Source: Methanobacteriota archaeon (GTDB taxonomy: Archaea > JAADCQ01 > Methanopyri > Methanopyrales > Methanopyraceae). Taken from it: a DNA stretch of 64,000 nt. The stretch covers positions 365,959 to 429,958 of the forward strand of contig JAMOPO010000015.1 of the NCBI GenBank assembly GCA_027064425.1. The letters run 5' to 3'. Below the pieces are notes generated by a model. That model saw only the letters and a program-made list of their open reading frames with translations, was not told the origin of the DNA and did no database searches. Positions 4,737-56,811 of the stretch are shown here, piece after piece (position 1 is the first letter of the stretch; each line of letters opens with the position of its first letter). A program made the position numbers and the translations under genes.

Positions 4737-4759
4737 TCGTTTCGAACATCGTAACGATT
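4737..4759. repeat. Intergenic palindrome, copy 1
   Basis: TCGTTTCGA-ACA-TCGTAACGATT. Confidence 0.75.
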
Positions 4760-4775
4760 CGTCCGGCGGGAGGGC

Positions 4776-5315
4776 TCAGCGCAGGGCCTCAGCGAACGCC
4801 TCCGCCAGCTCCTCCTCGTACCCCACCAGGAAGACCCTGCGAACCCGCTCGAGCTCCGGAGCCAGCTCCCGGATAACGCCGACCATGGTCTCCGCGGCGT
4901 CCTCGTAGGGGACGCCGCCGACCCCGGTTCCCATCCCCGGGAACGCGACGGACTCCACGCCCAGCTCCTCCGCCTTTTCCAGCGCCGCCCGGGTGGCCTT
5001 CTCGACGTTCTCCACGCCGATCCGCTGGGCCGGCCGCTCCATGGTGGGTGCGTGGATGACGTACTCCGCGCTCAGCCGGCCCGCGGTCGTGGCGACGGCT
5101 TCACCCACGGGGATCGGCGCCTTCTCGCGCGCCTCGCGCTCGATCTCCTCCCCTCCCTTCTCCTTGATCGCGGCCGCCACGCCGCCTCCCATCACGCCCT
5201 GGCTGTTGGCCGGGTTCACGATCGCGTCCGCGTCCTCCAGCTCGGTGATGTCGCCCTGGAGGACGATCACCTCAACCCCTTCCACTTCGGTGCGGAACAC
5301 CTCCTTCAGGGGCAA
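4776..5315 (-). CDS. Macro domain ADP-ribose-binding/hydrolase protein
   Basis: GDIT, AIVNPAN, MGGGVAAAI, FPGMGTGVGG. Confidence 0.92.
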   Translation of the reverse strand: MPLKEVFRTEVEGVEVIVLQGDITELEDADAIVNPANSQGVMGGGVAAAIKEKGGEEIEREAREKAPIPVGEAVATTAGRLSAEYVIHAPTMERPAQRIGVENVEKATRAALEKAEELGVESVAFPGMGTGVGGVPYEDAAETMVGVIRELAPELERVRRVFLVGYEEELAEAFAEALR

Positions 5316-5330
5316 GCGCCGGCACCCCCA

Positions 5331-5400
5331 GCCTCGGGAACCCCGTCGTATCTTCATCACTACGCCCGGGACTCCGCTGGCGCGGTGCTCCTCATCGGCC
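5331..5400 (-). ncRNA. Box C/D sRNA
   Basis: Minus strand: CGATGA-guide-CGGA...TGATGA-guide-CCGA. Confidence 0.65.
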
Positions 5401-5421
5401 TACGGGGGCGCCGGGCGGGCC

Positions 5422-5481
5422 GGTTTCGGCCCCCGTCATACTCATCACCGCTCAGAGGGGACAATGGTTCCTCATCAACCA
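5422..5481 (-). ncRNA. Box C/D sRNA
   Basis: TGATGA-GGAACCATTGTCCCCT-CTGA-gcgg-TGATGA-GTATGACGGGGG-CCGA, closed by a GGTT/AACC stem. Confidence 0.85.
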
Positions 5482-5502
5482 GCGTGATCGGGGTCAGCGT
5501 GA

Positions 5503-5585
5503 GCGTGTGCCCGGCGGCTTGCCCGCCCCCTCATCCCGACCCGCGAAGGGAGCGTCAGGGACGGCCTCCGGGCTTTACCGGGCTG
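5503..5585 (-). ncRNA. Box H/ACA sRNA
   Basis: GCCCGG/CCGGGC basal stem followed by ACA; upper stem with CTGA/GGATGA K-turn; 14 nt from upper stem to ACA. Confidence 0.7.
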
Positions 5586-5711
5586 CCGACCGGTCGGGGC
5601 ATCCCCGGCGGTCGGGGAGACCGCCCGGTTCCCGACCGGGCGCCCTCGGACTGCCAGGATCTATAATCGTTTCCGCCAAGAACCAGCGCGGTCGGCGGGG
5701 CGTGGGGAGGC

Positions 5712-6470
5712 GTGACGCTTGAGGACTACCTGGCCCGACTGAAGGAGTCCAGCGCCGTCCACGAGCCGGACCTGAGGATCCCCGTGAAGCGGGCCCTACT
5801 GCCCTGGGTGCTGACCTACGCGTCGTGGGTCGGGATGGCGCTGCTACCGGGGCCCGAGCGACTCCACGCGCCGCACCCGGGACACTTTGCGCTGCTGGGA
5901 GCGGCCGCGCTCGCGGTCCTGGGCACGCTGCTGGTGGGCGAGGCCCTCTACCTGTATTACCTTTACCTGCTGATCCGGCGCCGCAACGAGCACTTCGAGC
6001 GCTCGCACCGGTTCTTCCTGGCCCTGGTAAGGCTGCTCCGAGAGGCCGGGTACGAGGACGTATCGGCGCTCGAGCTGAAGGTGGAGGAGCTGAGGAGGGA
6101 GCCCAAGAACCCGGTCCTCTGGGTGATCCTCTCGCTGGTCCCGGTGCTGGGGCTCCTGGCCGTCCTTTACGTGTACCACTCGCTGAATCGAGACTTCCAC
6201 GAGCACTCCGTCGTGGAACGCAGCCTGGTGGAGGGCGTGGCCCGGGCCCTGGGAATGAGCCCGTACGAGCCCCCGTTCGAGGTGGAGGAGCTGGAACCGG
6301 TGCCGCGGCGGAGCACCGGCCTGTACCTGCTGCTGACGCTGCTAACGCTCGGGGTCTTCTCCGCGTACTGGTGGTACACCCTGGTACGGGACCCGAACGG
6401 GCACTTCCGGGCACACGAGCGGTTCGAACGGCGGCTGATTAGGGCGATAGAGGAGGGGATGGGAGGGTGA
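5712..6470 (+). CDS. Membrane protein (DUF4234-like)
   Basis: Multiple TM helices; LTLLTLGVFSAYWWY...DPNGHF. Confidence 0.7.
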   Translation: MTLEDYLARLKESSAVHEPDLRIPVKRALLPWVLTYASWVGMALLPGPERLHAPHPGHFALLGAAALAVLGTLLVGEALYLYYLYLLIRRRNEHFERSHRFFLALVRLLREAGYEDVSALELKVEELRREPKNPVLWVILSLVPVLGLLAVLYVYHSLNRDFHEHSVVERSLVEGVARALGMSPYEPPFEVEELEPVPRRSTGLYLLLTLLTLGVFSAYWWYTLVRDPNGHFRAHERFERRLIRAIEEGMGG

Positions 6471-6471
6471 C

Positions 6472-9400
6472 TCAGCCCCCTACCTCCTTCAGCAGCTCGG
6501 CCAGCAGGCCGATGAGGCCGCGCTCGTTGAGCAGCTCCCGCGCGCGGTCCGAGAGTCGGTACGCGTCTCCAACGGGTTCGAACAGGTCCGTCTGGGCCAG
6601 TCGTCCAAGCTCCTTCTCGGAGAAGGTCGCGTCCGCGCCCTCCCGGGCCACTCGCCGCAGCACGTCGATGGCGGCGTCGCTTAGCCGCTCCGCCAGCTCG
6701 GGCGGTAGGCGCAGCTCCTCGATGAGGGCGGTCGTCTCCTCCTCGCCATCGCCGGGCAGCTGGGCCCGGCAGGCGTAGAACTCGGTTTCCTCGTACTCCC
6801 GGGCCCTGTCGATGACCCAGCCGAGCACGGGCGTCTGGACGCGGCCGGCGCTGAGCCAGGTCATGGCCTCCAGCTCGACGTCCGGCTCGACCTCCTCGCC
6901 GTTGACCACCGCCCGGACCTCCACGGCGTCCTCCCGGACCGACTCGGCGTCGCCGAGCTCCCGGTTCTCGTCCATGAGGGTGGCGACATAGGTGACCTGG
7001 CCACCCCGGGAGATGCGCGTCCGAACGACGTACTCATCGCCCTCTCGGCGCACGCGGACGGGCCGGGACGGGACGTCCTCGTCCTCGAACCGGCGGCGGA
7101 AGTCAATGATCTTCACGCCCTCGGGCAGGCGGATACGGAGCTCGATGAACGTGCCGCGGTCACGCTCGCCCAGGTCGATGGTGAGGAGCTTGAACACCTC
7201 CCACAGGTCCTGGGACAGTGCGAAGCCGATCCACCGGTCGGCGACCCGGCGGAGGATCTGGGCGGACACGCGCCCGGCGTCCACGTCCTTCCAGTTCTCC
7301 TCCTCCAGCGCCTCGGAGATGCCGCGCCGGGTGACCTCGTGGAACTCGGTCCGGTGAACCTCCGCGGTGACCCAGCCGAGGTAGTTGAACACGTCCCACC
7401 CGATCTTCTCTCCCTCGGTGTCCGGGTCCGTGCCGATCAGGATGACGTCGGCCTCGGCGGCGAGGTCCCGGATGGATTCCAGGAGTGGCGTCTTCAGCTC
7501 AACCTCGCCACCGCAGTTCGGGCACTCCTCGCGGCCCACGACCTGCTCACCGCACTCCCGGCACCGGCCCAGCACGTCGTACACCGGCACCCACCGATCA
7601 CCCACCTGCTCCACACCGAAGACGCCCTCGTCCTCCACGAGGTCCGCGACGTGGCCCTGCGTGGCGACAACGGTCAGGTGCAGGCCCTCGGCCGCGGCCT
7701 CGTAGGCCACGCCACCGTCCAGCCGGCGCCGGGAGGGCCGGCGCGAGAACAGGGAGGCGATCATCCGGGCCTTGTTCGGCGATTCGACGATCATCAGGGC
7801 CGAGCGGGCGAGCTTGCCGGCCTCCTCCGGCTCGAGCTCGCCCCGGAGGATCTTGCGCACGCGCTCCCGGTCGTCGTCCACCTTCTCCACCAGCTCGTCC
7901 AGCTCCTCCTCGGACACGCCCTCCAGGTTCAGGCCGATGTCGTCCGCCGTGAGCTCCTCCGGGTAGGACTTCCACTCGAACTCGGTCCCGTACGTGTACG
8001 ACATTCGCCGGATCAGGCCGTTGAGCAGCCGGAGCTCCCGGTCGTCGTCCGGATCGCAGAGGACGAAGGACAGGCCGAAGGTCACGCCGCCGGCGAAGAG
8101 CCGGCTCACGCGCCCGCTGGCCTGTACGTACGTTCTCAGGTCCGGCACCTCGAGGAACGAGTCACCATCCTCCTCTCGCACGGCCACCGTGGTCGCCTCG
8201 CGCGCGAGCCGCTCCACCCGCTCCCGATCACCGAGCAGGTTCAGCAGCTCCCTCACGCCCTCGGCCAGCGTGCGGACGTTCCGGGCCAGCCAGGGCTCCA
8301 CGTCCAGCTCGTCGGCGATCTCGTCCGCGTTCCGGTCGGCCAGGTCCTGGAGCTCCTCGATGGAGAGGTCCTCCACGGCCTCCTCGACCCGCTCCCGGTA
8401 CCAGGCGCCGCGCCGGACGATCCGCCAGAGCCGGCCGGCGACGCCCTCGAGCCGGCTCCGCAGCTGGGTGTCGTCGATTAGGCGCGCAAGGTTGGACAGG
8501 GCGGAGGCGACGTAGGTCACGTCCTTCAGATCCTCCTCCTCGGGCGTCAGCCGGATGCGCTGGCGCGGGACCCCGTAGAAGACGGCGTACCGGGCCGCCT
8601 GGGGTAAGTCGAGCCCGCGCACGATAACGCCGTACGGGCTGGCGACGGCGACGAGGACGTCCACCTCACCCTCCGCGAACGCGTCGATGGCCTCCTCGCG
8701 CTCCTCGGCCGACGTGCCGGCGTGGACCGCCCGCGCCTCTATCCCGTGCTCTCGCAGGTGCTCGGCGATCTCCTCCGCCACCTCGCGCGCCCGCTCACCG
8801 CCGGGCAGACGCTGCGGTACGAAGACGAGGCCGCCCTCCGGACCCACGCGCTCGACGACCTCGCGCACGGCCTCCGGGGACGGCTCTTTCGGCACGACCA
8901 GGTCCTGGATGTTCCGGAGCCCCTCGCCGCCGGCGCCCACCTCGAAGTCGAAGAGCTCCCGAACGACCGCGAGCCTCCGGGATGGAGCGGCGGCTCCGGT
9001 CGCGCTCATGAAGACGATCTGAGCGAGATCCCGCCCTTTAGCCTCCTCAACCTCCTCCTCCAGCTCCTCGAGCTCCTTCTCGAGCTCCTCCAGGTCGCGC
9101 CGGACGCGCTCGGCCCGCTCCTCTTCGCCGCGCTCCTCCAGTGACTCGAGCCAGTCGCGCAGCGAGTAGTACCGGCGCCGGAGGTTCGCGAGACGGTACG
9201 CGGCGTCGATCTCGTCCTGCTCCAGGCCCGCCACCCGGAGGACGCGGTCGACGTTCCGGCCGGTACCGCGGATGATCGCGTCCACGTCGTCGACGAAGAT
9301 CACGTCGAAGTCGAGCCGCTCGAGCTCCTCCACGCGGTGGACCAGGAACTGGGCGGTGGTGATCAGGACGTCGAAGTCGCCCTCGCGGATGCGCTCCTGG

Positions 9401-10158
9401 GCCCTTCGCCGGCGCTCGTCGGGCATGGCCGCGTGGTAGCTGACGACCTCGACGTCGAGGCCGGCCCGCTCGGCGAGATCGCGGATGCGCTCCTCGACCT
9501 GGCGGACGAGGGTGGTCGTGGGCACGATATAGTACACGCGCCGGCCCGCGTGGGCCAGGAGGGCGCTCATCAGCGAGGCCCAGGAGGTCTTACCCGTGCC
9601 GGTCGGGGCCAGGATCGAGAAGCTGCAGCCACGGATCAGGCGCCGCGTCCACACGGCTTGGGCGGAGTACAGCCGGAACCCGGTCGCCTCCTCGAACGCG
9701 CGGTTCGCGATCTCGGTGAAGAGCTCGGGCCAAACGTGCTCGCGGAAGAACTCCTCGACGCGCTCGCGGTCGACCTCGCCCCGCTCGGCCCGGTCGCGGA
9801 GGAGCTTGAGCACCAGGAGAACCTCGCCCACGGTCCCGTGCTCCTTCCGGGCGGTCTTGAGCGCGTCCAGGAGCCGATCCGTCTCGTAGGGGAGGCAGCG
9901 CTCGCAGATGCCGATGCGAGAGGTGAGCCGGATCGAGGAGCAGTCGCCACCGCAGATCACGCACGCGGAGCCGAAGATGGCGACGGGCTCGTTCGGGTCC
10001 GTCCCGGAGATGTCCTTCTCGCGGACCCGGTCCGGGTCCTCCAGGTGCTCCTCCAGCCGCTCGGACAGCCGCTCGATGGTCTCAGAACACTCCTGAAGGA
10101 TCGGCTCGGCGAGGTCCTGGAAGCCCTCTGGGACGAGCTCCAGCACGTCATCCAGCAT
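6472..10158 (-). CDS. rgyB: Reverse gyrase subunit B (helicase domain plus N-terminal part of topoisomerase IA)
   Basis: N-terminal Zn finger, APTGTGKT, DDVD, SAT, QASGRVSR, VESPNKA, DPDTEGE, SAGRVQTP; ends before the active-site Tyr region. Confidence 0.93.
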   Translation of the reverse strand: MLDDVLELVPEGFQDLAEPILQECSETIERLSERLEEHLEDPDRVREKDISGTDPNEPVAIFGSACVICGGDCSSIRLTSRIGICERCLPYETDRLLDALKTARKEHGTVGEVLLVLKLLRDRAERGEVDRERVEEFFREHVWPELFTEIANRAFEEATGFRLYSAQAVWTRRLIRGCSFSILAPTGTGKTSWASLMSALLAHAGRRVYYIVPTTTLVRQVEERIRDLAERAGLDVEVVSYHAAMPDERRRRAQERIREGDFDVLITTAQFLVHRVEELERLDFDVIFVDDVDAIIRGTGRNVDRVLRVAGLEQDEIDAAYRLANLRRRYYSLRDWLESLEERGEEERAERVRRDLEELEKELEELEEEVEEAKGRDLAQIVFMSATGAAAPSRRLAVVRELFDFEVGAGGEGLRNIQDLVVPKEPSPEAVREVVERVGPEGGLVFVPQRLPGGERAREVAEEIAEHLREHGIEARAVHAGTSAEEREEAIDAFAEGEVDVLVAVASPYGVIVRGLDLPQAARYAVFYGVPRQRIRLTPEEEDLKDVTYVASALSNLARLIDDTQLRSRLEGVAGRLWRIVRRGAWYRERVEEAVEDLSIEELQDLADRNADEIADELDVEPWLARNVRTLAEGVRELLNLLGDRERVERLAREATTVAVREEDGDSFLEVPDLRTYVQASGRVSRLFAGGVTFGLSFVLCDPDDDRELRLLNGLIRRMSYTYGTEFEWKSYPEELTADDIGLNLEGVSEEELDELVEKVDDDRERVRKILRGELEPEEAGKLARSALMIVESPNKARMIASLFSRRPSRRRLDGGVAYEAAAEGLHLTVVATQGHVADLVEDEGVFGVEQVGDRWVPVYDVLGRCRECGEQVVGREECPNCGGEVELKTPLLESIRDLAAEADVILIGTDPDTEGEKIGWDVFNYLGWVTAEVHRTEFHEVTRRGISEALEEENWKDVDAGRVSAQILRRVADRWIGFALSQDLWEVFKLLTIDLGERDRGTFIELRIRLPEGVKIIDFRRRFEDEDVPSRPVRVRREGDEYVVRTRISRGGQVTYVATLMDENRELGDAESVREDAVEVRAVVNGEEVEPDVELEAMTWLSAGRVQTPVLGWVIDRAREYEETEFYACRAQLPGDGEEETTALIEELRLPPELAERLSDAAIDVLRRVAREGADATFSEKELGRLAQTDLFEPVGDAYRLSDRARELLNERGLIGLLAELLKEVGG

Positions 10159-10738
10159 CGTCTTTCAGCCCCTCGACGGCGCGAACGAGTCGTTCTAGTC
10201 GGGCGTGGCCCCTGGCCAGCAGCCGGTTGCACATCTCGACCAGGTGAGGCCAGGCCTCCCTCCTGATCGTCTCGCGCCCGTCGATCTTGACGGGCACTTC
10301 CATGCGCTCGGAGCCGAGGATCTCCACCACCACTTTTGAATCTTTGATCGAGCGGATGGAGGAGGCCTTGAACCCGGCCTCGGAGGCGGCGGAGCGCAGG
10401 CGCCGGGCCGCCTCCAGGTCGCGGCACAGGACGTGGAAGAGCGGCGGCTGGGCCTTCAGCCACGTGAGACCCTCGTCCGGGGCGCGCCGGACGGCCTCGC
10501 GCACCTCCTCCACCTCGACCGGCTCGTGCCACTTCGCGACGAACTCGGAGCCGCGCTTGTCCCCCACCTCGGGCTCGTGGAGCACGATGATGCGGCCCGA
10601 GCAGCTGCTCGTCGTGCAGTAGTCCGGGAGCGAGTTGATCGCCTCGAGGACGGGGATCGCCGGCTCGTCCACCTCGCCCCGCTCGATCGCCTCCTCGAGC
10701 TGGCGGAGGCGGCGCCGCTTCTCGCCCTCCCAGTGCAA
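10148..10738 (-). CDS. taw3: tRNA wyosine-pathway methyltransferase Taw3/TYW3
   Basis: TTSSCSGRI, KWH, PPLFHV, AGFKAS. Confidence 0.88.
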   Translation of the reverse strand: MHWEGEKRRRLRQLEEAIERGEVDEPAIPVLEAINSLPDYCTTSSCSGRIIVLHEPEVGDKRGSEFVAKWHEPVEVEEVREAVRRAPDEGLTWLKAQPPLFHVLCRDLEAARRLRSAASEAGFKASSIRSIKDSKVVVEILGSERMEVPVKIDGRETIRREAWPHLVEMCNRLLARGHARLERLVRAVEGLKDDAG

Positions 10739-10795
10739 GGTCAGTGCCGCCTGAGCTCCTCATTTATCCTCGGCGTTCGGTCGCCTCATCATCCG
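10738..10795 (-). ncRNA. Box C/D sRNA
   Basis: ATGATGA-GGCGACCGAACG-CCGA...AAATGA-GGAGCTCAGGCGGCA-CTGA, directly upstream of taw3. Confidence 0.75.
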
Positions 10796-10806
10796 GGGGC
10801 TCGGGG

Positions 10807-11826: not shown

Positions 11827-12375
11827 CTACTCACGCCAGCGCTGGAACTCCTTGAACCGGCGCTTGATTCGGCCCGGGACGCCGGGAGGGCTGAGCTCGC
11901 CCAGGTACCCGCGACCGTCCTCCTCCGAGATCCTGACCTCCTCCCGCAGCTCGGCCCGAAGGAGGAACTCGCACAGGCCCGCGTTCCGGATCACCGCGTC
12001 CCGTGGACGGAGCGTGACGGACCAGACGTAGTACACCTTGAAGGCCGTGTCCGGGAACATCCCGCCCCCGAGGTCGACCGCGAGCACGTCGCACGAGGGC
12101 TCGCCGAGGGCCTCAAGCACCCGCTCGAGCGTCTCATACTCCCGGGCGTCGCCCGGGACGAACGTCAGCTCCTCATGCTCCCGCTCCAGCTCGGCCATGG
12201 CCTCGCGCGCCTCCTCCCCGTAGTCCACGGCCACGACTCGCTCCGGACCGCGGCTTAGGATCCTCCGCGTGGCCGCGCCCTTGTGGCAGCCGAGCTCCAC
12301 GACGGTGTCGCCCTCCCGCACGACTTCCCCGAGAAGCTCCCGGTAGCGGTCCACGGATCGCACGAGCGCGATCAA
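11827..12375 (-). CDS. Class I SAM-dependent methyltransferase
   Basis: VVELGCHKG motif I, VAVD, GDA. Confidence 0.75.
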   Translation of the reverse strand: MIALVRSVDRYRELLGEVVREGDTVVELGCHKGAATRRILSRGPERVVAVDYGEEAREAMAELEREHEELTFVPGDAREYETLERVLEALGEPSCDVLAVDLGGGMFPDTAFKVYYVWSVTLRPRDAVIRNAGLCEFLLRAELREEVRISEEDGRGYLGELSPPGVPGRIKRRFKEFQRWRE

Positions 12376-13700: not shown

Positions 13701-14819
13701 GTGGTCGGCATTAAATCTGACCTCGAGGTTCTGGAGACGCTGCAGCGGGACGTAGAGCCGGCCCAGGACGGAGCACTCCCGCGGCTGGTCGACGAGAAGA
13801 TCGTCAAGGAGCTGTACGAGCAGGGTGAGCTGTTCGCCTCCTTCGGCGCCTACTACCGGCGGGAGAAGGGCTGCAAGGTGATGAAGGCGGCCGTGGACGG
13901 GGGCTTCGTTTGCCCGAACAAGGACGGTAGGATCTCGAAGGTGGGGTGCCTGTTCTGCCCGAAGATGGGCCGTACGATCATCACGCCCAACGTGGACCCG
14001 AAGAAGAAGATCGAGGAGCAGGCTAAGAAGCAGATGGAGGTCTTCCGGGAGCGGTACGGGGCGGAGAAGTTCCTCGTCTACTTCTACCCGGCGACGAACA
14101 CGTACGCGCCGCCGGACGTGCTGGAGGAGCTGTACAACCGGGCGCTGGAGATGGAGGACGTGGTCGGCCTGTCCATCGGCACGCGGCCCGACTGCCTGCC
14201 GGACGAGGTCCTGGACCTGCTGGAGGATTACGTGAAGGAGGGCTACGACGTCTGGCTGGAGATCGGCGTTCAGTCGTACCACCACCGGACGCTGATGCGG
14301 GTGCGCCGGGGTCACGGCCTGGCCGAGGTCGTGGACGCGATCATCCGGGCCAAGGAGCGGGGCATTCGGGTGGTCAACCACATCATCTTCGGCCTGCCGG
14401 GCGAGACGCGGGCTGAGATGCTGGAGACCGTGCGGATGCTCTCGGTGCTGGGCGTTGAGGCGGTGAAGCTGTACCCGCTGGTCGTCCTGGAGCGGACGGA
14501 CCTGGAGTGCCTGTACAAGAAGCGGCGGTACAAGCCGCTGAGCTACCGGGAGTACATCCGGCTGCTCGCGGACGCGCTGGAACGGATGGCGCCGACCGTG
14601 CTCATCCAGCGGCTGTCGAAGGACCGGGCGCCGGACGAGGAGGTGATCGAGCCGGAGTGGGACCTGTACCGGATGAGGGTGATCTCCGACGTGCGGAAGG
14701 AGCTGGCGCGGCGCGAGTCGCGGCAGGGTGCCAAGTACAAGGTGGGGCTGGACGCGGACGAGCTGGTGCCGCTGGTCAAGGGGGCCACGGGCGCGGAGGG
14801 CTCGGAGGTCCCGACCTAG
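13701..14819 (+). CDS. YhcC-type radical SAM protein
   Basis: GFVCPNKDG...GCLFC, TNTYAP, GLSIGTRPDCL. Confidence 0.88.
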   Translation: MVGIKSDLEVLETLQRDVEPAQDGALPRLVDEKIVKELYEQGELFASFGAYYRREKGCKVMKAAVDGGFVCPNKDGRISKVGCLFCPKMGRTIITPNVDPKKKIEEQAKKQMEVFRERYGAEKFLVYFYPATNTYAPPDVLEELYNRALEMEDVVGLSIGTRPDCLPDEVLDLLEDYVKEGYDVWLEIGVQSYHHRTLMRVRRGHGLAEVVDAIIRAKERGIRVVNHIIFGLPGETRAEMLETVRMLSVLGVEAVKLYPLVVLERTDLECLYKKRRYKPLSYREYIRLLADALERMAPTVLIQRLSKDRAPDEEVIEPEWDLYRMRVISDVRKELARRESRQGAKYKVGLDADELVPLVKGATGAEGSEVPT

Positions 14820-14840
14820 CCTCCCCACGCCCGGACGCGT

Positions 14841-14863
14841 TCGTTACGAACCTCGAAACGATT
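14841..14863. repeat. Intergenic palindrome, copy 2
   Basis: TCGTTACGA-ACC-TCGAAACGATT. Confidence 0.78.
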
Positions 14864-14868: not shown

Positions 14869-15331
14869 CGGCGGCGGCCGTGGGTGGGCTATAGCCCGCC
14901 TTCTGTAGTCTTAGCTGGCGGCATTCACCTCAGCGGCCCACCATCCCCCTCCGGCCCGGTGTTCATCGGGGGCATCACCCTCGTATCATCGGGCTCATTC
15001 GGCCTCGCCCGCCGCCGGGCGGCCCGTTTCACCGATCCCGTCGGCGTCCTCTGCGGGTTAGCTCGGGCCCCGTCGCCGGGGCCCTTCTCGGCCCGCCGAC
15101 GGCGGGCCTCAGCCGCGTCATCGCCATCCGCCGACGGACGTGTCGTTTCTGTGGCCGGACCCCGGCCTCTCGGCCGGCCCCGTCTCGGGGCGGCGGCCCG
15201 GGCCCGGGGGCGGAGCTTCCTCCCCTTAGCGGCCTTCCGGCCGCACCCCGACGGGCCCGCCCTCATTGCCGTGCTCCGGCGGGCCCTTCCTCGGGGCGGG
15301 GGAGCCGCCAGCCCACCCACGGCCGCCGCCG
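14869..15331 (-). ncRNA. rnpB: RNase P RNA
   Basis: Minus strand carries CR-I GAGGAAGCTCCG, CR-II ACAGAAA, CR-III TGAAAC, CR-IV TGAATGC and CR-V ACAGAAGGCGGGCTA; perfect 22-bp P1 (14869-14890 with 15310-15331). Confidence 0.95.
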
Positions 15332-18054: not shown

Positions 18055-18130
18055 GCGGCCGCAGTCTAGTCTGGTAGGACGCGGGCCTTCCGAGCCCGTG
18101 GCCCGGGTTCAAATCCCGGCGGCCGCACCA
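18055..18130 (+). tRNA. tRNA-Gly(TCC), CCA encoded, C at position 8
   Basis: Acceptor GCGGCCG/CGGCCGC; anticodon arm CGGGC-CTTCCGA-GCCCG; T arm CCGGG-TTCAAAT-CCCGG; ends ACCA. Confidence 0.97.
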
Positions 18131-18133: not shown

Positions 18134-18162
18134 GGAATCGTTACGAGGTTCGTAACGATTCC
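18134..18162. repeat. Intergenic palindrome, copy 3 (perfect)
   Basis: GGAATCGTTACGA-GGT-TCGTAACGATTCC. Confidence 0.85.
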
Positions 18163-18181: not shown

Positions 18182-19996
18182 TTAGGAGGCGGCGCGGCGT
18201 CGGATGCTTCCCGCGTCCCTCAGGACTCGTAGCGCCTCGAGGAGCTCCTCGCCCGCCCGAGTGATCTTCCACCCGCTCATCATCTTCGTCCGCCGGAGCA
18301 GCGTCACCACCTTCTTCGCCTGGTCCAGCGTCACGTCCGCCTCCTTCAGCAGCGACTTCGGGAACTTCGAGAGCTTCTTCGCCCCGAACCCCCGCCCCCT
18401 CAGCTTCGACACGGCCTCCAGGAACCGGGCCGAGACCGGCGTGATCGGATGCCTCAGCTTGAGGATCTCCATCGTCTGGCCCCGATGGATCGCCCGTCGG
18501 AGGTGCCGGCCGGCGCGGGTCAGCGAGACGTAGCCCGTCAGGAGCTCGTCCACGATCCCCCTCGACTCGAGGCGGTCCAGGTGCTCGAGCACCTCGTGCT
18601 CGAGGAGCCCGTACCGGTTCTCGAGGTCCTCGATCAGATCCTCCCGGGCCACCGCCTCCGGCGGGATCCGGTACACGATCTTCGCCTCATCACCGGTCAA
18701 GAACGGGGCCCGTTTCACTCTCCTCGCCACCTTGGCGACCAGGAGCCCGCGCGTGGTAATCGCCGACTTCGAGACCAACCCCTGCCGGTGAGCCTCCTCC
18801 AGCCACTCCGGCGAGGGCGCCTCATGGCCCAGCGACACCGTGACGGCCTTGACGGCGACGGCGCGGACGGGGTCACCGAGCTGGTGCAGCACTTGCTCGC
18901 CTTCCTCGGTCAGCACCCAGATGGGCTTGCCCTTCTCCCTCCCGTAGTCGCAGACGGTCTTCTCGACGAGCCCGTGCGCCTCGAGCTCCTTGAGCTCCGT
19001 GGACGGGTCGGGGTCGCGCTCTCCGTACTCCTCCTCCAGGACGCGCTTGATGCGGGCGAGCGTGGGGGCGACGTTGGGGTTCTCTCCCGGTCGGTGCAGC
19101 CGGTCGATGATCTCTAGGAGTCGGAGCTCTTCCGGCCGGATGCTGACCGGCGGTACGCCCGGAACGTCCTCGCCGAGCATCTCGTAGGCGCGGAGGACGT
19201 GCTCGCCCGCCCGGGTCAGCGAGCCCTCCCACACGTAGCCCAGCCGCTCGAGCCGCTTCATGTCCTCCGGCTCCTCGCCCTCGTCCACGGCCTTGATGTC
19301 CTCCATGATGTCCGGCGAGAGGACGACGTGCATGGCCGGCACGGCCTTCTCCAGCGCGTACTTGACCTCGCGACCCAGGGCGGTCAGCGTGTAGGTCCTG
19401 GCGCCGTCGATGGGCGGCGAGATCACGAGCAGCCGCATCGCCTCGAGCGCGTGCAGGACGCTGTCCGGGATCCCGAGCGTCTCCCGGTACTTGATGAAGG
19501 CCTTGAGCGTGCCCGGGCCGGGTGGGAGCCGGGCGATCACGCCCGAGACGTCCTGGGTCACGTAGAGCCGCGGGGTCGCCCTCAGGTAGGCCTCGAGAAT
19601 GAGCTCGCCCGCCTCCGTGAGCTCACCGTCCTCGGCCAGGCCGCGCTCCCGGAGCAGCTCATCCCAACCGTCGGGCACGGCGGACAGCGAGGCGTGCTTC
19701 AGCGCGAGGATTGTGTCCGAGCCCACCCAGCGCTCGTGCGTCCACTCGTGCGGGTCGCAGCCCAGGATCTCCGCGGCCCGCTCGGCGGCCTCGGCGGCGA
19801 GTCGGCCCGCCTTCGTGAGCTTCCACTCGTTGGAGCCGACCCGGACGGCCAGTCCCTGCAGCTCGAGCTCGAGAAGTCGCCGTGGGACGATCTCCGTGGT
19901 CGTCTCCGCCTCCTCCGCGATCTCGCGCGCTTCCTCCCTCTTACCCGCCTCCTGGACCGTGAGCAGCACGTCCGCGTGGTCGCGCAGGAGGAGCAA
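18182..19996 (-). CDS. DUF505-like protein with repeated winged-helix units
   Basis: 604 aa; repeated LTxxG wing motifs. Confidence 0.7.
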   Translation of the reverse strand: MLLLRDHADVLLTVQEAGKREEAREIAEEAETTTEIVPRRLLELELQGLAVRVGSNEWKLTKAGRLAAEAAERAAEILGCDPHEWTHERWVGSDTILALKHASLSAVPDGWDELLRERGLAEDGELTEAGELILEAYLRATPRLYVTQDVSGVIARLPPGPGTLKAFIKYRETLGIPDSVLHALEAMRLLVISPPIDGARTYTLTALGREVKYALEKAVPAMHVVLSPDIMEDIKAVDEGEEPEDMKRLERLGYVWEGSLTRAGEHVLRAYEMLGEDVPGVPPVSIRPEELRLLEIIDRLHRPGENPNVAPTLARIKRVLEEEYGERDPDPSTELKELEAHGLVEKTVCDYGREKGKPIWVLTEEGEQVLHQLGDPVRAVAVKAVTVSLGHEAPSPEWLEEAHRQGLVSKSAITTRGLLVAKVARRVKRAPFLTGDEAKIVYRIPPEAVAREDLIEDLENRYGLLEHEVLEHLDRLESRGIVDELLTGYVSLTRAGRHLRRAIHRGQTMEILKLRHPITPVSARFLEAVSKLRGRGFGAKKLSKFPKSLLKEADVTLDQAKKVVTLLRRTKMMSGWKITRAGEELLEALRVLRDAGSIRRRAAS

Positions 19997-40374: not shown

Positions 40375-40375
40375 G

Positions 40376-50943: not shown

Positions 50944-50946
50944 GGC

Positions 50947-51282
50947 TTACCCGAACAGGGCTCCGAGGCCGGCCGCTGCCTCCTCCTCGGCCTCCTCCTC
51001 TTCTTCCTCCTCCTCCTCTTCTTCCTCTTCCTCCTCAGCAGCCTCCTCCTCAGTCTCCTCCTCTTCCTCCTCAGCGCCGGCACCGGCGGCCGGTGCTGCG
51101 GCCGGCACGGCGGCCTCCTCGATGGCCTCGTCGATGTCGACTTCCTCTAGCGCGGCGACCGTGGCCTTCAGCCGGGCCTCGTCCACTTCGACGCCGGCGG
51201 CCTCCAGGACCTTCCGCAGGTTCTCCTCGTTGATCTCTTGACCGGCGGCGTGCAGTAGCAGGCACGCGTAGATGTACTCCAA
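50947..51282 (-). CDS. rpl12: Ribosomal stalk protein P1/L12
   Basis: [10 protein letters not shown], acidic tail, GLGALFG; TTG start. Confidence 0.95.
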
Positions 51283-51359
51283 ACCGAGCACCCCCTCTCC
51301 GAGGACTTTCGCCCCTCGGCGCCCGTAGAGTTCCAAAAAGGTTTACGGGAGGGGACACC

Positions 51360-52460
51360 GTGTCCGGGAACCCGTTTCGGAAGATGCCAGAGGTGCCGGA
51401 TCCGGAGGAGCTCATCGACACCGCGTTCCGGAGGGCAGAGCGAGCGGCCGAGGGAACGCGCAAGTCGTTCCGGGGCACGAGGACTCCGCCGGAGGTGAGG
51501 GCCCGGTCCATCGAGATCGCCCGGGTCAACACCGCCTCTCAGCTGATTCAGGATCGACTCTGGGAGATCGTCCGAAAGACGCCGAACCTGGACAAGATCC
51601 ACCCGTTCTACCGGGAGCTGGCGGACGCTATCGCGGGCGTGGACAAGCTCAAGCAGAGCCTCGCCGACGTGCACACGGTGGCCAAGCTGGCCCGGCTGAT
51701 CCGGGAAGAGTACATCCGGAAGCTCAAGCAGACGGACGACCCGGGCGAGGCCGCGGAGCTGCGCCGGCAGGCGTACGGACGGCTGGCCTCGGCGGTGCGT
51801 CGTAAGGCGGGCGACGCGCTGAGGTTCCTCCGGCAGGTGCAGCCGAAGCTCGTGGACCTGCCCTCCATCGACCCGGAGATGTTCACGGTAACGTTCGCCG
51901 GGCACCCCAACGTGGGCAAGACCACGCTGATGACGGCACTCACCGGCTCGGAGCCGGAGATCGCGCCCTACCCGTTCACGACGAAGGGGATTCAGGTGGG
52001 CTACATGGAGGACCCGTACCCGGTGCAGATTCTGGACACGCCGGGCCTGCTGGACCGGCCGGACGAGGAGCGGAACCCGATCGAGCGCCAGGCGATCGTG
52101 GCGCTGAAGCACGCCACCGACGCCGTCTTTTTCCTCCTGGATCCGACGGGGACGTGCGGGTTCGACGTCGAGGAGCAGCTGGACCTGCTGCGCCGGGTGC
52201 GGGAGGAGTTCGACGTTCCCTTCCACGTGGTCCTCACGAAGGCGGACATGGAGGACCTGTGGGAGCGGCCCGAGGAGCTCGATGAGGTGCTGGAGGAGGA
52301 CGACAAGGTGTTCGAGGTCTCGGCGAAGGACGGTCGGGGGCTCGACAAGTTAAAACGGAGGCTCAACGAGCTGGCCCGGGGGTACTACGGTGAGCGCGAT
52401 CGAAAGGATGTTGGAGGAGGCGGTGAGGACTGGAGCGAAGAGCGCCGAGGAGGGGATTAA
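51360..52460 (+). CDS. NOG1 family GTPase
   Basis: HPFY, GHPNVGKT, YPFTT, DTPGLLDR. Confidence 0.92.
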   Translation: MSGNPFRKMPEVPDPEELIDTAFRRAERAAEGTRKSFRGTRTPPEVRARSIEIARVNTASQLIQDRLWEIVRKTPNLDKIHPFYRELADAIAGVDKLKQSLADVHTVAKLARLIREEYIRKLKQTDDPGEAAELRRQAYGRLASAVRRKAGDALRFLRQVQPKLVDLPSIDPEMFTVTFAGHPNVGKTTLMTALTGSEPEIAPYPFTTKGIQVGYMEDPYPVQILDTPGLLDRPDEERNPIERQAIVALKHATDAVFFLLDPTGTCGFDVEEQLDLLRRVREEFDVPFHVVLTKADMEDLWERPEELDEVLEEDDKVFEVSAKDGRGLDKLKRRLNELARGYYGERDRKDVGGGGEDWSEERRGGD

Positions 52461-52905
52461 GCTCGCGAGCGAGCTGTTCGAGGAGGTCCTGCGAGAGGGC
52501 CTTAGGACGCTGTCGGAGGCGGCCAGGTCGGAGGACCTGCAGGGTCTGGTGGAGGACGCTACCGGCCAGCTCGTCCGGACGCTGCGCTGGGCGAGCACCC
52601 CGGCCGTGGACGTGTATGAGAGGTCGGGCGAGTTCGTGATCGTGGTGGAGGTGCCCGGTGCCAAGCCGGACGACGTGAGCGTGCGCGCCGGGGAGGACTA
52701 CGTGGAGGTCCGGGCCAAGCTGCCCCGGATGCGCGAGGGCAGGCCCAGGTACCGGGAGCGCGTGACGGGCGAGGTCACCCGGCGGATCGACCTGGACGCG
52801 AAGATCGACCCGAAGGGTGTCAAGGCGGAGTGCGGCGACGGCCTGCTGGTGATACGAGCCCCCAAGGTTGAGGAGGCGGAGGTGAAGGTGAGGCCGGCCG
52901 AGTGA
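52390..52905 (+). CDS. Small heat-shock protein Hsp20
   Basis: PAVDVYE, VEVPG, DGLLVIRAPK. Confidence 0.88.
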   Translation: MSAIERMLEEAVRTGAKSAEEGIKLASELFEEVLREGLRTLSEAARSEDLQGLVEDATGQLVRTLRWASTPAVDVYERSGEFVIVVEVPGAKPDDVSVRAGEDYVEVRAKLPRMREGRPRYRERVTGEVTRRIDLDAKIDPKGVKAECGDGLLVIRAPKVEEAEVKVRPAE

Positions 52906-52972
52906 CGGCTCGGTCCCGGGTTCAGTCGTCACCCGGCACGCCGTCAGCCGTTCCGGACCCTCGTCATCGCCG
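52906..52972 (-). ncRNA. Box C/D sRNA (tRNA T-arm guide)
   Basis: ATGACGA-guide-CTGA...GTGACGA-CTGAACCCGGGA-CCGA, with CGGC/GCCG stem. Confidence 0.8.
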
Positions 52973-52984
52973 GAGGTATCGCCC

Positions 52985-54037
52985 ATGATCGAGATCGACG
53001 GGTCCTACGGGGAGGGAGGCGGACAGATCCTCCGCACCGCCGTCGGGATGGCGGCCCTCACGGGGAAGCCGGTGAGGATCTTCAACATCCGCGCCAACCG
53101 GCCCAACCCGGGCATGTCCCATCAGCACTACCATGCGGTTAAAGCTGTGGCGGAGATGTGCGACGCCGAGTGCGAGGGGCTGGAGGTGGGATCCACCGAG
53201 CTGGTGTTCAGGCCCGGCAGGGTGCGAGGAGGCGAGTACGAGATCGATATCGGAACGGCGGGCAGCGTGACCCTGCTCCTGCAGGCCGTCAAGCTCGCCG
53301 CCCTCGCCGCCGACTCCACCGTCGAGGTCGAGGTTCGGGGCGGCACGGACGTCAAGTGGTCGCCACCAGTGGACTACGAGATCCACGTGCACGCGCACTA
53401 CCTCAAGCGGATCGGATGCGAGTACGAGCTCGAGGTAGAGCGGCGCGGGCACTACCCGCGCGGTGGGGGCATCGTTCGGGCCCGGATCGAGCCGGTCGAC
53501 AGGCTCAAGCCCCTCAACGCCGTCGAGTTCGGAGAGCTCGAGGAGGTCCGGGGCATCTCCCACTGCGTCCGACTGCCGCCCCACGTTGCCGAGCGTCAGG
53601 CTAGGGCGGCGGCGGAGGTGATCGAGAGGGAGCTCGGCGTCGAACCGGACATCGAGGTGGAGACGTACCCCAAGCACCGGGACCCGCACAAGGGACCGGG
53701 CAGCGGGATCGTGCTCTGGGCCGAAGACGATCAGGGCAACCGGATCGGCGCCGACGCGCTCGGCGAGAAGGGCAAGCCGGCCGAGCAGGTGGGCCGGGAG
53801 GCCGCCGAGGAGCTGGTCGAGCGCGTGAAGACGGGCATGGCGCTGGACGAGAACATGGGTGATCAGATCCTACCCTTCCTGGCCCTCGCGGACGGCGAGT
53901 CGGAGTACGGAGTGACGAGGGTCGACCCGCACCTGACCACGAACGCCTGGGTGGTTCAGAAGTTCCTGGACGTCGACATCGAAGTGGACGGGGAGGAGGG
54001 TGAGCCCGCGGTGGTCAGGGTCCGGCCTGGGAGTTGA
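52985..54037 (+). CDS. rtcA: RNA 3'-terminal phosphate cyclase
   Basis: DGSYGEGGGQILR, GGTDV, YPRGGG, HLTTN. Confidence 0.95.
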   Translation: MIEIDGSYGEGGGQILRTAVGMAALTGKPVRIFNIRANRPNPGMSHQHYHAVKAVAEMCDAECEGLEVGSTELVFRPGRVRGGEYEIDIGTAGSVTLLLQAVKLAALAADSTVEVEVRGGTDVKWSPPVDYEIHVHAHYLKRIGCEYELEVERRGHYPRGGGIVRARIEPVDRLKPLNAVEFGELEEVRGISHCVRLPPHVAERQARAAAEVIERELGVEPDIEVETYPKHRDPHKGPGSGIVLWAEDDQGNRIGADALGEKGKPAEQVGREAAEELVERVKTGMALDENMGDQILPFLALADGESEYGVTRVDPHLTTNAWVVQKFLDVDIEVDGEEGEPAVVRVRPGS

Positions 54038-54707
54038 GCGCCCGCTCCGCCTCCCGCACGTCGCCCGGCTCGTTAACGTTCAGTAGCTCGCCCTTGTCCC
54101 TGGGCGGCACGACCCTGAACTCCAGCCCGGACTCCCGGAGCACCGGGTTCAGGTTCATCGAGTTGGAACCGCGCTCGGGCGCCAGTCGCTCGACGGTCTC
54201 CAGGAACCGCTCGACCGCGTCCCGGTCCAGCGCCAGCGGCGGCCCGTGCCCCTCCAGCTCGTCCCCACTGATCACGTCGTCCGGGGCGCCCCGATCCAGG
54301 ATCGCGGCCCCGTACTCTCTCGCCGCCCGGACGAGCTCTTCCATCGTCTCCGCGGTCACGGTCGGCTGGTCGCCCGCGAGCACCAGCGAGACGTCCGCTC
54401 GGGAGCGCCGGAGGAGGTTGGCCGCCGTCCGGGCCATGGGCACGTCCGCCGGGTCGTTGAGCACCGGCTTGACCGGGGCCCTCGCGTGCTCGGTCACCGC
54501 CTCCCACACGAGGCCCGCGTCGTAGCCCAGCCCCACCAGGATCACGTCCGCAACCCGTGAGGCGCGCTTGACCACCCAGCCGACCATCGGCTTGCCCGCG
54601 ACCGGGTAGATCAGCTTGTTGACGGGCTCCTCGCCGCGCTCCCGCAGCCCCTCCCGGAATCGGCTGGCCCGGCCGGCCGCCAGCACGCACGCCGCGACCC
54701 GCACCAT
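54015..54707 (-). CDS. MobA/MocA-like nucleotidyltransferase
   Basis: LAAGRASRF, NKL, GDQP, NVN. Confidence 0.82.
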   Translation of the reverse strand: MVRVAACVLAAGRASRFREGLRERGEEPVNKLIYPVAGKPMVGWVVKRASRVADVILVGLGYDAGLVWEAVTEHARAPVKPVLNDPADVPMARTAANLLRRSRADVSLVLAGDQPTVTAETMEELVRAAREYGAAILDRGAPDDVISGDELEGHGPPLALDRDAVERFLETVERLAPERGSNSMNLNPVLRESGLEFRVVPPRDKGELLNVNEPGDVREAERALNSQAGP

Positions 54708-54719
54708 GGGCCTCGCACC

Positions 54720-55892
54720 CTAGCCCGCGTGCAGCTCGACGACGTCCCCGTCCTCCAGGACGTGATCGCGGCCCACCATCATTCCGTCCTTCTTCACGGA
54801 CTTACCCCAGACCCGCGCGTACTTCAGGTTCTTAGCTAGCTCCGAGTGGATCTCCTTGGCCAGATCCTCCACCGTCGCACCCCGCGGCAGGACGACCGGC
54901 GGCTTCTGCGGCTTCCCGCCCGGCTTCTTCGTGTACACCCGGATGATGTTCAGCGTATCGTACAGCCGCTCCTTGAACTCGTCCAGATTCGCCCCCTTCT
55001 TCGCCGAGATCGGTACGACCGGCAGCTCGAACTCCAGCTCCTCCTCGATCCACTCGCGCAGCTCCTCGTAGGACTCCCGCGTCCCGGGCTCGTCACCCTT
55101 GTTCGCCACCACCATCCCACGCTTGTACTCGAGCCTCCGGTCCAGCGCCTCCGCCACGTCCTCCAACGTCACCCCCTCCTCCTCGATCACCACGACCGCG
55201 CTGTGGATGCCCGACTCGCGCAGGAACTCCTTCACGTCCTCCGGGTCACACTCCAGCCGCTCCTCGCCTCGGATCTCGATCCCACCGGACGCTCGCTCCT
55301 CGATGCTGACGCCGGGCGGGGACTGATTCAGCTTGATCGCCGCCGAGTCCAGCTCGCCGAGCACCGTCTTCAGCTGGTCCACGGGATCCTCGGACAGGTC
55401 CACCATGATGCAGACCGCGTCCGCGCTCCGGATCACGCCCACGAACCGGCTGCCCTCCCCGTGCACGAACCCCTCGTGTACCGGCGGAACCTCCACCAGC
55501 TGGATCTGCACGTCCTTGTACTCCATCATCCCGGGGACCGGCTTCCGCGTCGAGTACGGGTACGGTGCCACCTCCGGCTCCGCGTTCGTCAGCTTCCGCA
55601 GCAGCGTCGACTTGCCCACGTTCGGCGGCCCCACCAGCGCGACCTGGGCGGCCCCCTCCTTCTTCACGTGGTAGTCCGGCCCGCCGCCCGACTTCTGCTT
55701 CCGCCGCTTTTCCACCTCCTCCCGCAGCTTCGCCAGCCGACGCTTGAGCAGCGCCCGCAGGTTCTCCGTGCCCTTGTGCTTCGGGACGACCGAGAGCATT
55801 TCCTCCGTGATCTTCAGCTTCTCCTCCGGCGAGCGGGCCTGGCGGTACTTCTCCTCCAGCTTGTGGTACTCCGGCGGCAGGTTCGCCGGCAC
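54720..55892 (-). CDS. DRG/OBG family GTPase with TGS domain
   Basis: MPANLP, HKGTE, GPPNVGKS, NKGD, ARVWG. Confidence 0.92.
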   Translation of the reverse strand: MPANLPPEYHKLEEKYRQARSPEEKLKITEEMLSVVPKHKGTENLRALLKRRLAKLREEVEKRRKQKSGGGPDYHVKKEGAAQVALVGPPNVGKSTLLRKLTNAEPEVAPYPYSTRKPVPGMMEYKDVQIQLVEVPPVHEGFVHGEGSRFVGVIRSADAVCIMVDLSEDPVDQLKTVLGELDSAAIKLNQSPPGVSIEERASGGIEIRGEERLECDPEDVKEFLRESGIHSAVVVIEEEGVTLEDVAEALDRRLEYKRGMVVANKGDEPGTRESYEELREWIEEELEFELPVVPISAKKGANLDEFKERLYDTLNIIRVYTKKPGGKPQKPPVVLPRGATVEDLAKEIHSELAKNLKYARVWGKSVKKDGMMVGRDHVLEDGDVVELHAG

Positions 55893-55898
55893 GCGAAC

Positions 55899-56510
55899 TC
55901 ACCCCCGGACCACCCTCATCACGCCGTCCAAAACCATCTGCACCCCGATCCCCGCCAGCACGACCCCCATCACCCGCGTCAGCACGCGGATGCCGGACCT
56001 CCCCAGCATCCGAGCCAGCGGCTCCGCCGCCAGGAACGTCCCCAGCGTGGCGAGCATCACGAGCACGCAGGCCAGGATCGTCTCCAACCGCCCGTACCGA
56101 TGGAGCATGACTATGACCGTGACGATGGCGCCCGGCCCCGCCAACAGCGGCGTTCCCAGCGGCACGTACGCCACGTCCAGCCGCGACTCCGGCTCGATCC
56201 GGAACCCAGTCGGATCCCCCTCCACCATCCCCAGAGCCGCCCGGAGCAGCAGGATCCCGCCCGCGATCATCAGCGCCTCGACCGAGACCCCCAGGTAATC
56301 CAGCACGAGCTTGCCCGAGATCGCGAACCCCAGGATCAGCACGCCCGCGAAGCCCACCGCCCGGTACACGACCCGCACCCGCTCCCCGGGCCTCAGGTCG
56401 GAGGTTAAGGACAGGAGGACCGGCACGTTCCCCACCGGGTCCACCACCACGAACAGCTCGATGAACCCCTTCAACACGCCGTAGAGGTCCAACGCCCGCG
56501 CCCCCAGCAC
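55899..56510 (-). CDS. MarC family membrane protein
   Basis: VDPVGNVP, AGGILL, PLGTPLLAGPG. Confidence 0.9.
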   Translation of the reverse strand: MLGARALDLYGVLKGFIELFVVVDPVGNVPVLLSLTSDLRPGERVRVVYRAVGFAGVLILGFAISGKLVLDYLGVSVEALMIAGGILLLRAALGMVEGDPTGFRIEPESRLDVAYVPLGTPLLAGPGAIVTVIVMLHRYGRLETILACVLVMLATLGTFLAAEPLARMLGRSGIRVLTRVMGVVLAGIGVQMVLDGVMRVVRG

Positions 56511-56548
56511 TTAAGGCCGACCGGTGCGCCGTCCACCCGGGGAACCGC

Positions 56549-56773
56549 ATGGCCTGGCGCGTGTACAAGAAGAAGGTGATCGTGCACCACTACCACCACC
56601 CGGCGCACGGCCACCACGTCGTCGTGCACAAGAAGTCCGGCCTGCTCGGAGGACTCCTGAAGCTCGGACTGGTCGCCGCCGTCCTGGTCCTGCTGGTGAT
56701 CGCCGTGGCGGTGATCGTCGGGCTGTACCTGCTGTACCGGTTCCTCGGCCGGCGACGCCACCGGACTCACTGA
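56549..56773 (+). CDS. Small His-rich single-pass membrane protein
   Basis: HHYHHPAHGHH...H followed by one TM helix and a basic tail; native codon usage. Confidence 0.65.
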   Translation: MAWRVYKKKVIVHHYHHPAHGHHVVVHKKSGLLGGLLKLGLVAAVLVLLVIAVAVIVGLYLLYRFLGRRRHRTH

Positions 56774-56787
56774 GCCCCCCTCAGCCG

Positions 56788-56811
56788 ATCGTTACGAGCG
56801 TCATAACGATT
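56788..56811. repeat. Intergenic palindrome, copy 4
   Basis: ATCGTTACGA-GCG-TCATAACGATT. Confidence 0.75.

Follow-up and report, generated by a model that had tools for sequence, protein, structure and literature searches.

The question raised by the 64,000-nucleotide stretch of DNA considered here (the window; positions 365959-429958 of contig C15 in the genome of an archaeon of the Methanopyraceae) is what purpose is served by a short palindrome which recurs in it just 3' of genes. The initial annotation of the window reported four intergenic copies, favored a site for a dimeric protein over an RNA hairpin, and offered several possible roles for it. The main pattern, overlooked there, is the association with stable-RNA genes, and this is the defining property of the element: the 25-base palindrome, with the consensus AATCGTTAYGA-N3-TCRTAACGATT, is found downstream of 157/157 independently defined tRNAs in six genomes of one genus.

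These genomes are the source genome (G000; 1.54 Mb in 57 contigs, 99.17% complete) and five further genomes of the same genus (G001-G005). Genes of G000 were called with a codon-usage caller written for this analysis, giving 1501 genes and 85.6% coding sequence.

Stable-RNA genes carry the element

The tRNAs of G000 were taken from Rfam calls (34), so the palindrome itself does not define the tRNAs that were counted; the other ARAGORN candidates, whose 'introns' were very long, did not enter the count. All 34 have the element downstream with 0-6 mismatches. In G001-G005, where tRNAs were found with Rfam and their ends set with ARAGORN, the element is present at +4 to +12 of 123/123 tRNAs with 1-8 mismatches, and the best match over 26 offsets in random sequence has 10-15 mismatches. 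The start of the tRNA copies is near-fixed, falling 4-8 nt after the encoded CCA. The same holds for other stable RNAs: both 5S rRNA and the signal recognition particle (SRP) RNA have the element downstream in 6/6 genomes (11 and 14 nt after the gene, respectively, in G000), as does RNase P RNA in 5/6, the exception being G004, where no element lies within 80 nt of RNase P RNA. Copies are also found downstream of the 23S and 16S 3' ends in G000.

The working set for G000 consists of 39 tRNAs, these being the 34 Rfam calls and five found by ARAGORN only, all five with the element. Together with the 123 tRNAs of the other genomes they give 162 tRNA trailers, the sample used for the covariation, oligo-T, spacing and arm tests across the six genomes. 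The set of 39 includes the near-duplicate contigs C16/C18 and C29/C32; near-identical downstream flanks are seen for tRNA-His(GUG) on C16 and C18 and for tRNA-Ser(UGA) on C29 and C32, which suggests that these are redundant contigs from strain variants, and the copy counts of G000 are therefore slightly inflated. CCA is encoded in 37/39 of these tRNAs and C is present at position 8 in 32/39, C8 being the state which needs C-to-U editing in M. kandleri and a hallmark of Methanopyrus according to the available part of PMC3695527. The mention of Methanopyrus in the initial annotation is in keeping with this. The reverse complement of a tRNA T-arm is present in the flanks of many copies. A 101-nt ARAGORN tRNA with an undetermined four-base anticodon, 'gggg', is found both at C15:41309-41409 of G000, where it scores 31.8 bits with Rfam, and at locus L036 of G002; the palindrome is present as at other tRNAs, and the gene is probably a mis-parsed intron-bearing tRNA.

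A matching site 5' of tRNA genes, as gene looping needs, was considered and rejected. The best 5' matches mostly have 10-14 mismatches; the exceptions are three at 4, 5 and 8 mismatches, two of which lie beside a neighboring copy. A link to C/D-box small RNAs was rejected as well, as the flanks of the 54 non-tRNA copies of G000, all covered by an Rfam scan, have a C/D-like pattern upstream in 1/54 and gave three weak, sub-threshold Rfam C/D matches.

Anatomy of the element

In the 162 trailers, positions 5-6 and 20-21 of the element are invariant and positions 2, 3, 7 and 19 nearly so; the best-conserved stretches are positions 2-8 and 18-24, and the center is the least conserved part. One consensus is common to both arms, which are separated by N3 in at least 154/162 copies, and the distal arm often reads ACGTTT (51/162 trailers). 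Outside the 25 bp neither flanking repeats nor conservation were found. Complementarity between the 6 nt on each side does not exceed that of shuffled pairings (p=0.13 to 0.90 across the six genomes), and an extended hairpin was rejected since the flanks add no complementarity.

A palindrome of this kind could also be a signal at the RNA level, in which a transcribed hairpin or the proximal arm is read by an enzyme that processes or protects 3' ends; the idea is the tRNA 3' maturation proposal of Tong et al. 2017 widened to all stable RNAs and some mRNAs. As aCPSF1 (909 bits) and an RNase Z-like gene (187 bits, short of the cut-off of 293 bits) are both present in the genome, cleavage at such a signal is the main rival of the DNA site proposed here. 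The near-fixed offset from the mature CCA end, where A-tailed RNA also ends, speaks for an enzyme of this type, as does the polarity of the element: at tRNAs the gene-proximal arm, which is the first to be transcribed, has 189 mismatches vs 422 in the distal arm, and mRNA-only copies show the same trend at 41 vs 57, which is not significant (n=26). Among copies at ≤4 mismatches the minimum distance to a stop codon is 13 nt, which could reflect the footprint of the terminating ribosome, and the place after mcrB in the mcr operon resembles that of intra-operon stabilizer hairpins. Furthermore, 3' processing is the first step of tRNA maturation in the available part of Su et al. 2013 (PMC3695527).

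The variable pairs do not covary (9-17, p=0.26; 10-16, p=0.42; 11-15, p=0.96), and about 2/11 positions per stem are unpaired on average. The 1782 pair cells on the tRNA-sense strand comprise 157 A.C, 80 G.U and ~1325 Watson-Crick pairs, where the excess of A.C over G.U is confounded by variation lying mostly in the distal arm and is used solely as a sign of pairing that is not kept up. Of the 23 copies in G004, 16 have C.A at pair 9-17. The AT-rich stem has a conserved sequence and, by prediction, does not hold together at growth temperature: the perfect copy has a predicted folding free energy (dG) of -11.8 kcal/mol at 37 °C, which rises to -0.8 at 80 °C and to +3.8 at 98 °C. At 85 °C none of 88 copies is predicted to fold (0/39 in G000, 0/26 in G002 and 0/23 in G004), in agreement with the initial annotation, which had considered an RNA hairpin too weak. 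The growth range of M. kandleri is 84-110 °C, as given in the available part of PMC5217627. As for a bacterial-type hairpin terminator, neither a stable stem preserved by compensatory changes nor a U-tract directly after it was found.

Protein-recognized RNA hairpins mostly have a conserved loop rather than a conserved stem sequence; the element, with its unconserved loop and conserved stem, is the reverse of most of them. A two-fold symmetric consensus at fixed spacing likewise has no reason in single-stranded RNA. On balance an RNA-level signal is unlikely, with a real but minor share of the probability. Because the arms follow one consensus at fixed spacing around an unconserved center, and no pairing constraint is seen, we infer that the element is a double-stranded DNA site for a two-fold symmetric, presumably dimeric, protein rather than an RNA hairpin, which is also what the initial annotation had judged to fit better.

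Transcription ends and the boundary reading

Termination in archaea is understood as the work of oligo-T together with the general factors aCPSF1/FttA and Eta, and we know of no archaeal terminator or boundary element that is sequence-specific and served by a factor of its own. In the genomes analyzed here, a T5+ run within 60 nt after the gene is found at 0/162 tRNAs and a T4+ run in 17/162 of their trailers. Among the protein genes of G000, 17/368 60-nt 3' flanks hold a T5+ run vs 8 for the A5+ control; T5+/A5+ runs number 296 in the whole genome. According to the available part of PMC7289017, archaeal intrinsic termination normally relies on poly-U, and M. kandleri has no TFS.

The near absence of oligo-T after genes, taken with poly-U as the archaeal norm and the lack of TFS, points to the reading preferred here, in which the palindrome is a lineage-specific cis-element that marks the 3' limit both of stable-RNA genes and of some protein-coding units. 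A dimeric, sequence-specific protein would bind it as duplex DNA, and once bound would halt RNA polymerases, or uncouple them, at the boundaries of units, serving 3'-end formation or insulation in a genome nearly without the oligo-T terminators that other archaea use. As the element is palindromic, it could act on polymerases from either side. We place the probability that the palindrome is a DNA site for a dimeric protein, acting as a 3' boundary or terminator element, at roughly 0.45.

Several points weigh against this proposal. The binding protein remains putative, a symmetric dimer alone does not account for the better-kept proximal arm, and two pairs, 4-22 and 8-18, covary weakly in the 162 trailers (p=0.024 each). 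The bias of the flanked protein genes, which are listed below, toward abundant or highly expressed products is an impression from names only. A further difficulty lies in the geometry. A polymerase stalled by a DNA-bound roadblock stops ~12-15 nt ahead of the site, and the element lies only ~5 nt past the tRNA CCA, too near for a simple roadblock, which would cut the tRNA short. The sense polymerase has to be able to get into the site, and the block would then be polar or leaky, or another mechanism would apply. For the mRNA copies, a distance of at least 13 nt from stop codons fits such a stall.

The remaining points come from RNA data, namely four A-tailed, size-fractionated 2013 runs of one study, in the form of contigs only, on the 9.9-kb locus L197 of G002, a genome of 1.69 Mb. 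A-tails mark tRNA 3' ends at CCA at places 1995, 6580 and 8111-8113 of this locus. RNA contigs bridge the element at 1965-1989 with a depth of ~22 in the four runs, and one contig extends ~255 nt beyond the element of another tRNA; therefore, either polymerases pass through the element at some rate or the libraries contained DNA, and this too weighs on the negative side. The element after tRNA-Pro (8119-8143) is uncovered among the contigs listed, where missing contig cover proves nothing, and one contig of the convergent gene ends at 8153, 10 nt short of that element, which contigs, being unable to show transcript ends, leave as a position only. Elsewhere on the locus, a small RNA of very high abundance comes from L197:1194-1299 (contig depth 824-2138), and its A-tailed 3' ends fall at 1292-1299; this region contains the C/D-box-like words TGATGA and CTGA and overlaps the beginning of an open reading frame (ORF).

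The anatomy of the element argues for recognition of double-stranded DNA, which would equally serve a DNA-level role other than termination, either as a site for a supercoiling-relief protein or topoisomerase or as a replication fork barrier. Gyrase relieves transcription-driven supercoiling at the repetitive extragenic palindromic (REP) and bacterial interspersed mosaic elements (BIME) of E. coli, and Fob1, Reb1 and Tus stop replication forks that meet transcription head-on. Placement at the 3' ends both of genes for stable RNAs and of genes for usually abundant products (thermosome, McrB, ribosomal proteins) is in line with such a role, some read-through of the element suits a site that is not a terminator, and topoisomerase V is, to our knowledge, restricted to Methanopyrus, as is the motif. 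Against this, no topoisomerase or fork barrier is linked to the sequence, and a purely topological function does not predict polarity to the upstream gene. We consider a role of this kind improbable.

The four copies in the window

The window, with a GC content of 67-70%, was searched for AATCGTTACGA-N3-TCGTAACGATT at ≤3 mismatches, with 100 dinucleotide-preserving shuffles as the null. Exactly four matches were obtained (0, 2, 3 and 3 mismatches) against a mean of 0.00 expected, and the core 9-mer TCGTTACGA occurs 5 times vs 0.16 expected. The four copies of the initial annotation are thereby borne out, along with their conserved arms and variable 3-nt spacer; the spacers are all different (aca, acc, ggt, gcg). 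All four are intergenic, and their distances of 16, 19, 5/21 and 13 nt from gene 3' ends agree with the limit of about 25 nt that had been given. The CGTTA-N9-TAACG core is exact in the copies at 18136 and 56787, and one core base is off in those at 4735 (CGTTT) and 14839 (AAACG). The copies are given below without strand.

Two copies had been placed at the ends of RNase P RNA and tRNA-Gly, and Rfam and ARAGORN agree. The third copy (18136-18160, 0 mismatches) has perfect arms that reach 13 bp (18134-18162), as had been reported for the best copy, and is one of only 2 perfect copies in G000. It begins 5 nt past the CCA of tRNA-Gly(UCC) (18055-18130, + strand; ARAGORN, Rfam), the sole tRNA of the window, whose CCA is encoded and whose position 8 is C, and the copy lies 21 nt past the stop of a DUF505 gene (18182-19996, - strand). 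The second copy (14839-14863, 3 mismatches) lies 19 nt past the stop of a radical-SAM gene (13701-14819, + strand) and ~23 nt from the Rfam 3' end of the RNase P RNA gene (14887-15238, - strand; RF00373, 87.1 bits vs a gathering score of 84), which faces it.

The other two copies follow protein genes. The first (4735-4759, 3 mismatches) is 16 nt past the stop of a Macro-domain gene (4776-5315, - strand) and 26 nt ahead of the start of an ABC-ATPase gene (3956-4708, - strand). The spacer in which it sits (4709-4775) leaves no obvious promoter room before the start codon of the same-strand ABC ATPase, and the copy may lie inside an operon, like the one between mcrB and the next gene. The fourth (56787-56811, 2 mismatches) is 13 nt past the stop of a conserved 74-aa ORF (56549-56773, + strand) with relatives in six/six genus genomes. 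No Rfam match at E≤0.01 was found in the flanks of this copy, and the 349 nt downstream of it (56812-57160) are without a called gene. Both places are occupied in G000, G003 and G005 only; at the orthologous place after the Macro gene in G001, G002 and G004 the best match has 9-10 mismatches, and the element is absent.

Distribution across the source genome

At ≤5 mismatches the palindrome has 89 matches in G000 (2, 11, 15, 17, 17 and 27 for 0 to 5 mismatches, respectively), spread over 23/57 contigs. With respect to our own gene calls, 79 are fully intergenic, 7 lie across a gene end and 3 within a called gene. By class, 35 are behind a tRNA, 7 behind other stable RNAs and 31 within 60 nt after a protein-gene stop; the remainder are 14 otherwise intergenic copies and 2 inside gene calls. 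The 57 intergenic copies at ≤4 mismatches comprise 30 in tandem, 15 in convergent and 2 in divergent spacers and 10 at contig edges, which were left out of the classification by context, leaving 47; for comparison, G000 spacers of ≥25 nt number 334 tandem, 79 convergent and 190 divergent. Among the 47 that have a gene on either side, 26 are found 8-45 nt past a stop codon vs 9.8% of random intergenic 25-mers. In the 45 nt that follow stop codons, no words are more enriched than the 7-mers of the palindrome (8- to 11-fold).

This distribution bears on two further explanations, both raised in the initial annotation. The first is that of a selfish repeat resembling REP or miniature inverted-repeat transposable elements (MITE), spread without function to permissive sites at 3' ends. 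Some ~90 intergenic palindromic copies, mostly at 3' ends, would be in keeping with it, as would the lineage-specific copies at the Macro gene and the 74-aa ORF, and two overlapping copies (4 and 5 mismatches) behind the thermosome gene at C3:131777-131818 of G000, which faces a convergent DUF131 gene. Contradicting it, a search for the Y1 transposase PF01797 gave 0 matches in G000 (the control search was positive in 6/14 known genomes), so that no Y1/RAYT transposase was found in a genome 99% complete; one copy stands at each tRNA gene at a near-fixed offset in six genomes, copies occupy orthologous places across the genus, and conservation ends at 25 bp with no flanking repeats. A mobile origin is very unlikely.

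The second is a chromosome site, namely a tyrosine recombinase site of the XerA/dif type, read as 11-7-11, or a chromosome-organizing site akin to parS or matS. The palindromic geometry of the best copy suits it and nothing else does. dif is present as one copy per replicon, and the element has 89 copies in a 1.54-Mb genome, their placement being bound to the 3' ends of genes and to each tRNA. The polarity to the upstream gene and strict placement 3' of genes are, in addition, unexpected for segregation sites of the parS/matS type. Explanations of this sort can hardly be credited.

Some places in G000 are of interest in their own right. The 4.6-kb contig C2 has four copies (at 514, 1173, 2999 and 3123) and few called genes, and small RNA genes that escaped annotation may be clustered on it; the copy at 2999 is adjoined by the one C/D-box-like pattern and by a weak sR10 match. 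An H/ACA-like match to Pab19 (C15:43012-43122, L049:497-607; 50.5 bits, below the gathering score of 55) begins 72 nt past the second perfect copy of the palindrome (C15:42916). As to a CRISPR/Cas6 link, no CRISPR array with at least five repeats is assembled in G000.

Protein genes with the element

Pfam was applied to the 34 genes with a stop ≤60 nt upstream of a copy, and a family was assigned to 22. The families include thermosome, McrB, A-ATPase subunit A and the ribosomal proteins S15, L7Ae, L32e and S10, further rubrerythrin, an FrhB-like protein, polyferredoxin and NrdD, and ordinary enzymes as well. The copies after the thermosome gene and between mcrB and the next gene are orthologous in 6/6 genomes. 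Set beside the Macro-gene and 74-aa ORF copies, found in three, they show that some copies are ancient and that others were gained within one clade.

The stretch between the stop codon and the palindrome is C-rich and purine-poor (e.g., window 14820-14838) and often has the box CYCACGCC, which is found in 22/1472 3' flanks vs 5/1440 5' flanks of G000. The box is kept after thermosome and mcrB in several genomes of the genus, where it is followed by a CTTCTTCCC-like tract, and it may belong to a composite signal at mRNA 3' ends.

Lineage range and earlier description

Copies at ≤2 mismatches number 28, 3, 2, 20, 20 and 22 in the six genomes of the genus, the palindrome being present in 6/6, and 0 in 25 other archaeal genera; a reversed-pattern control gave 0 in all genomes searched. 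The exact degenerate pattern was found at 8 loci in 185,579 species genomes, 7 in metagenome-assembled genomes (MAGs) of Methanopyri/Methanobacteriota and 1 in Pseudomonas.

The initial annotation knew of no description of the motif, which is not correct. The motif itself is already known, its core having appeared in 2017 in a paper on methods for motif finding. In the part available of that paper (BMC Genomics 18:27, PMC5217627), Tong, Schliekelman and Mrazek describe CGTTA(N)9TAACG for M. kandleri AV19, where it lies ~10 bp downstream of about half of the tRNA genes, call it palindromic and organism-specific, and speculate that it is the target of a 3' maturation enzyme. Their core corresponds to positions 4-8 and 18-22 of the 25-mer, and in both works the motif is palindromic, lies downstream of tRNAs and is restricted to the lineage. 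The two differ in reach, half of the tRNAs of one genome in what is available of that paper as against all of those counted in six here, and in the addition here of 5S rRNA, SRP RNA, RNase P RNA, the rRNA operon ends and some mRNAs; the tests made here also oppose an RNA hairpin. The motif is not mentioned in the covered parts of Su et al. 2013 (PMC3695527), which were parts of the text and two supplements but not File 1. A literature search found no follow-up to the 2017 motif. What is new here is the universality at tRNAs in six genomes, the wider set of targets, the polarity and the evidence against a hairpin.

Comparison with known systems

Reb1 and TTF-I act at 'Sal box' terminators behind rRNA genes, and mTERF1 acts behind mitochondrial 16S rRNA; we know of no such system in archaea. 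The likeness lies in a sequence-specific site right behind heavily transcribed stable-RNA genes, one which can face polymerases from both sides, and in the pyrimidine-rich tract ahead of the mRNA copies, which stands in the position of the T-rich release element. The element differs in being a near-perfect palindrome with a putative factor, and in that its tRNA copies, 5 nt from the mature end, are too near for a classical roadblock.

REP/BIME elements are also short intergenic palindromes at operon 3' ends and between operon genes, and are linked to mRNA 3' stabilization and gyrase binding. Unlike these, the element has no RAYT gene, occurs strictly as one copy per stable-RNA gene and in orthologous places, and keeps the sequence of its arms rather than their pairing. 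REP/BIME elements vary between strains; here, two window copies are clade-specific, but the stable-RNA, thermosome and mcrB copies are fixed genus-wide. With oligo-T and hairpin-plus-U terminators the element has in common its position right after genes and a distal arm that often ends in T2-3; it differs in the lack of T5+ after the tRNAs and in an AT-rich, non-covarying stem that is predicted to be melted.

Implications for the Methanopyri

The palindrome offers a precise 3'-end marker for stable-RNA genes when annotating Methanopyri MAGs. As oligo-T is near-absent and one conserved 25-bp signal stands behind stable-RNA genes, the question of how stable-RNA 3' ends are made in a GC-rich hyperthermophile is directly testable with a defined bait sequence. 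It is a tentative and on present evidence rather unlikely idea that the Methanopyri replaced oligo-T at stable-RNA and other heavily used genes by a dedicated, protein-dependent boundary system with a dimeric factor on the 25-bp palindrome, working in both directions. If true, this would be the first Reb1/TTF-I/mTERF-like terminator system in Archaea, and its targets (tRNA, 5S rRNA, SRP RNA and RNase P RNA) would mirror the transcriptome of eukaryotic RNA polymerase III.

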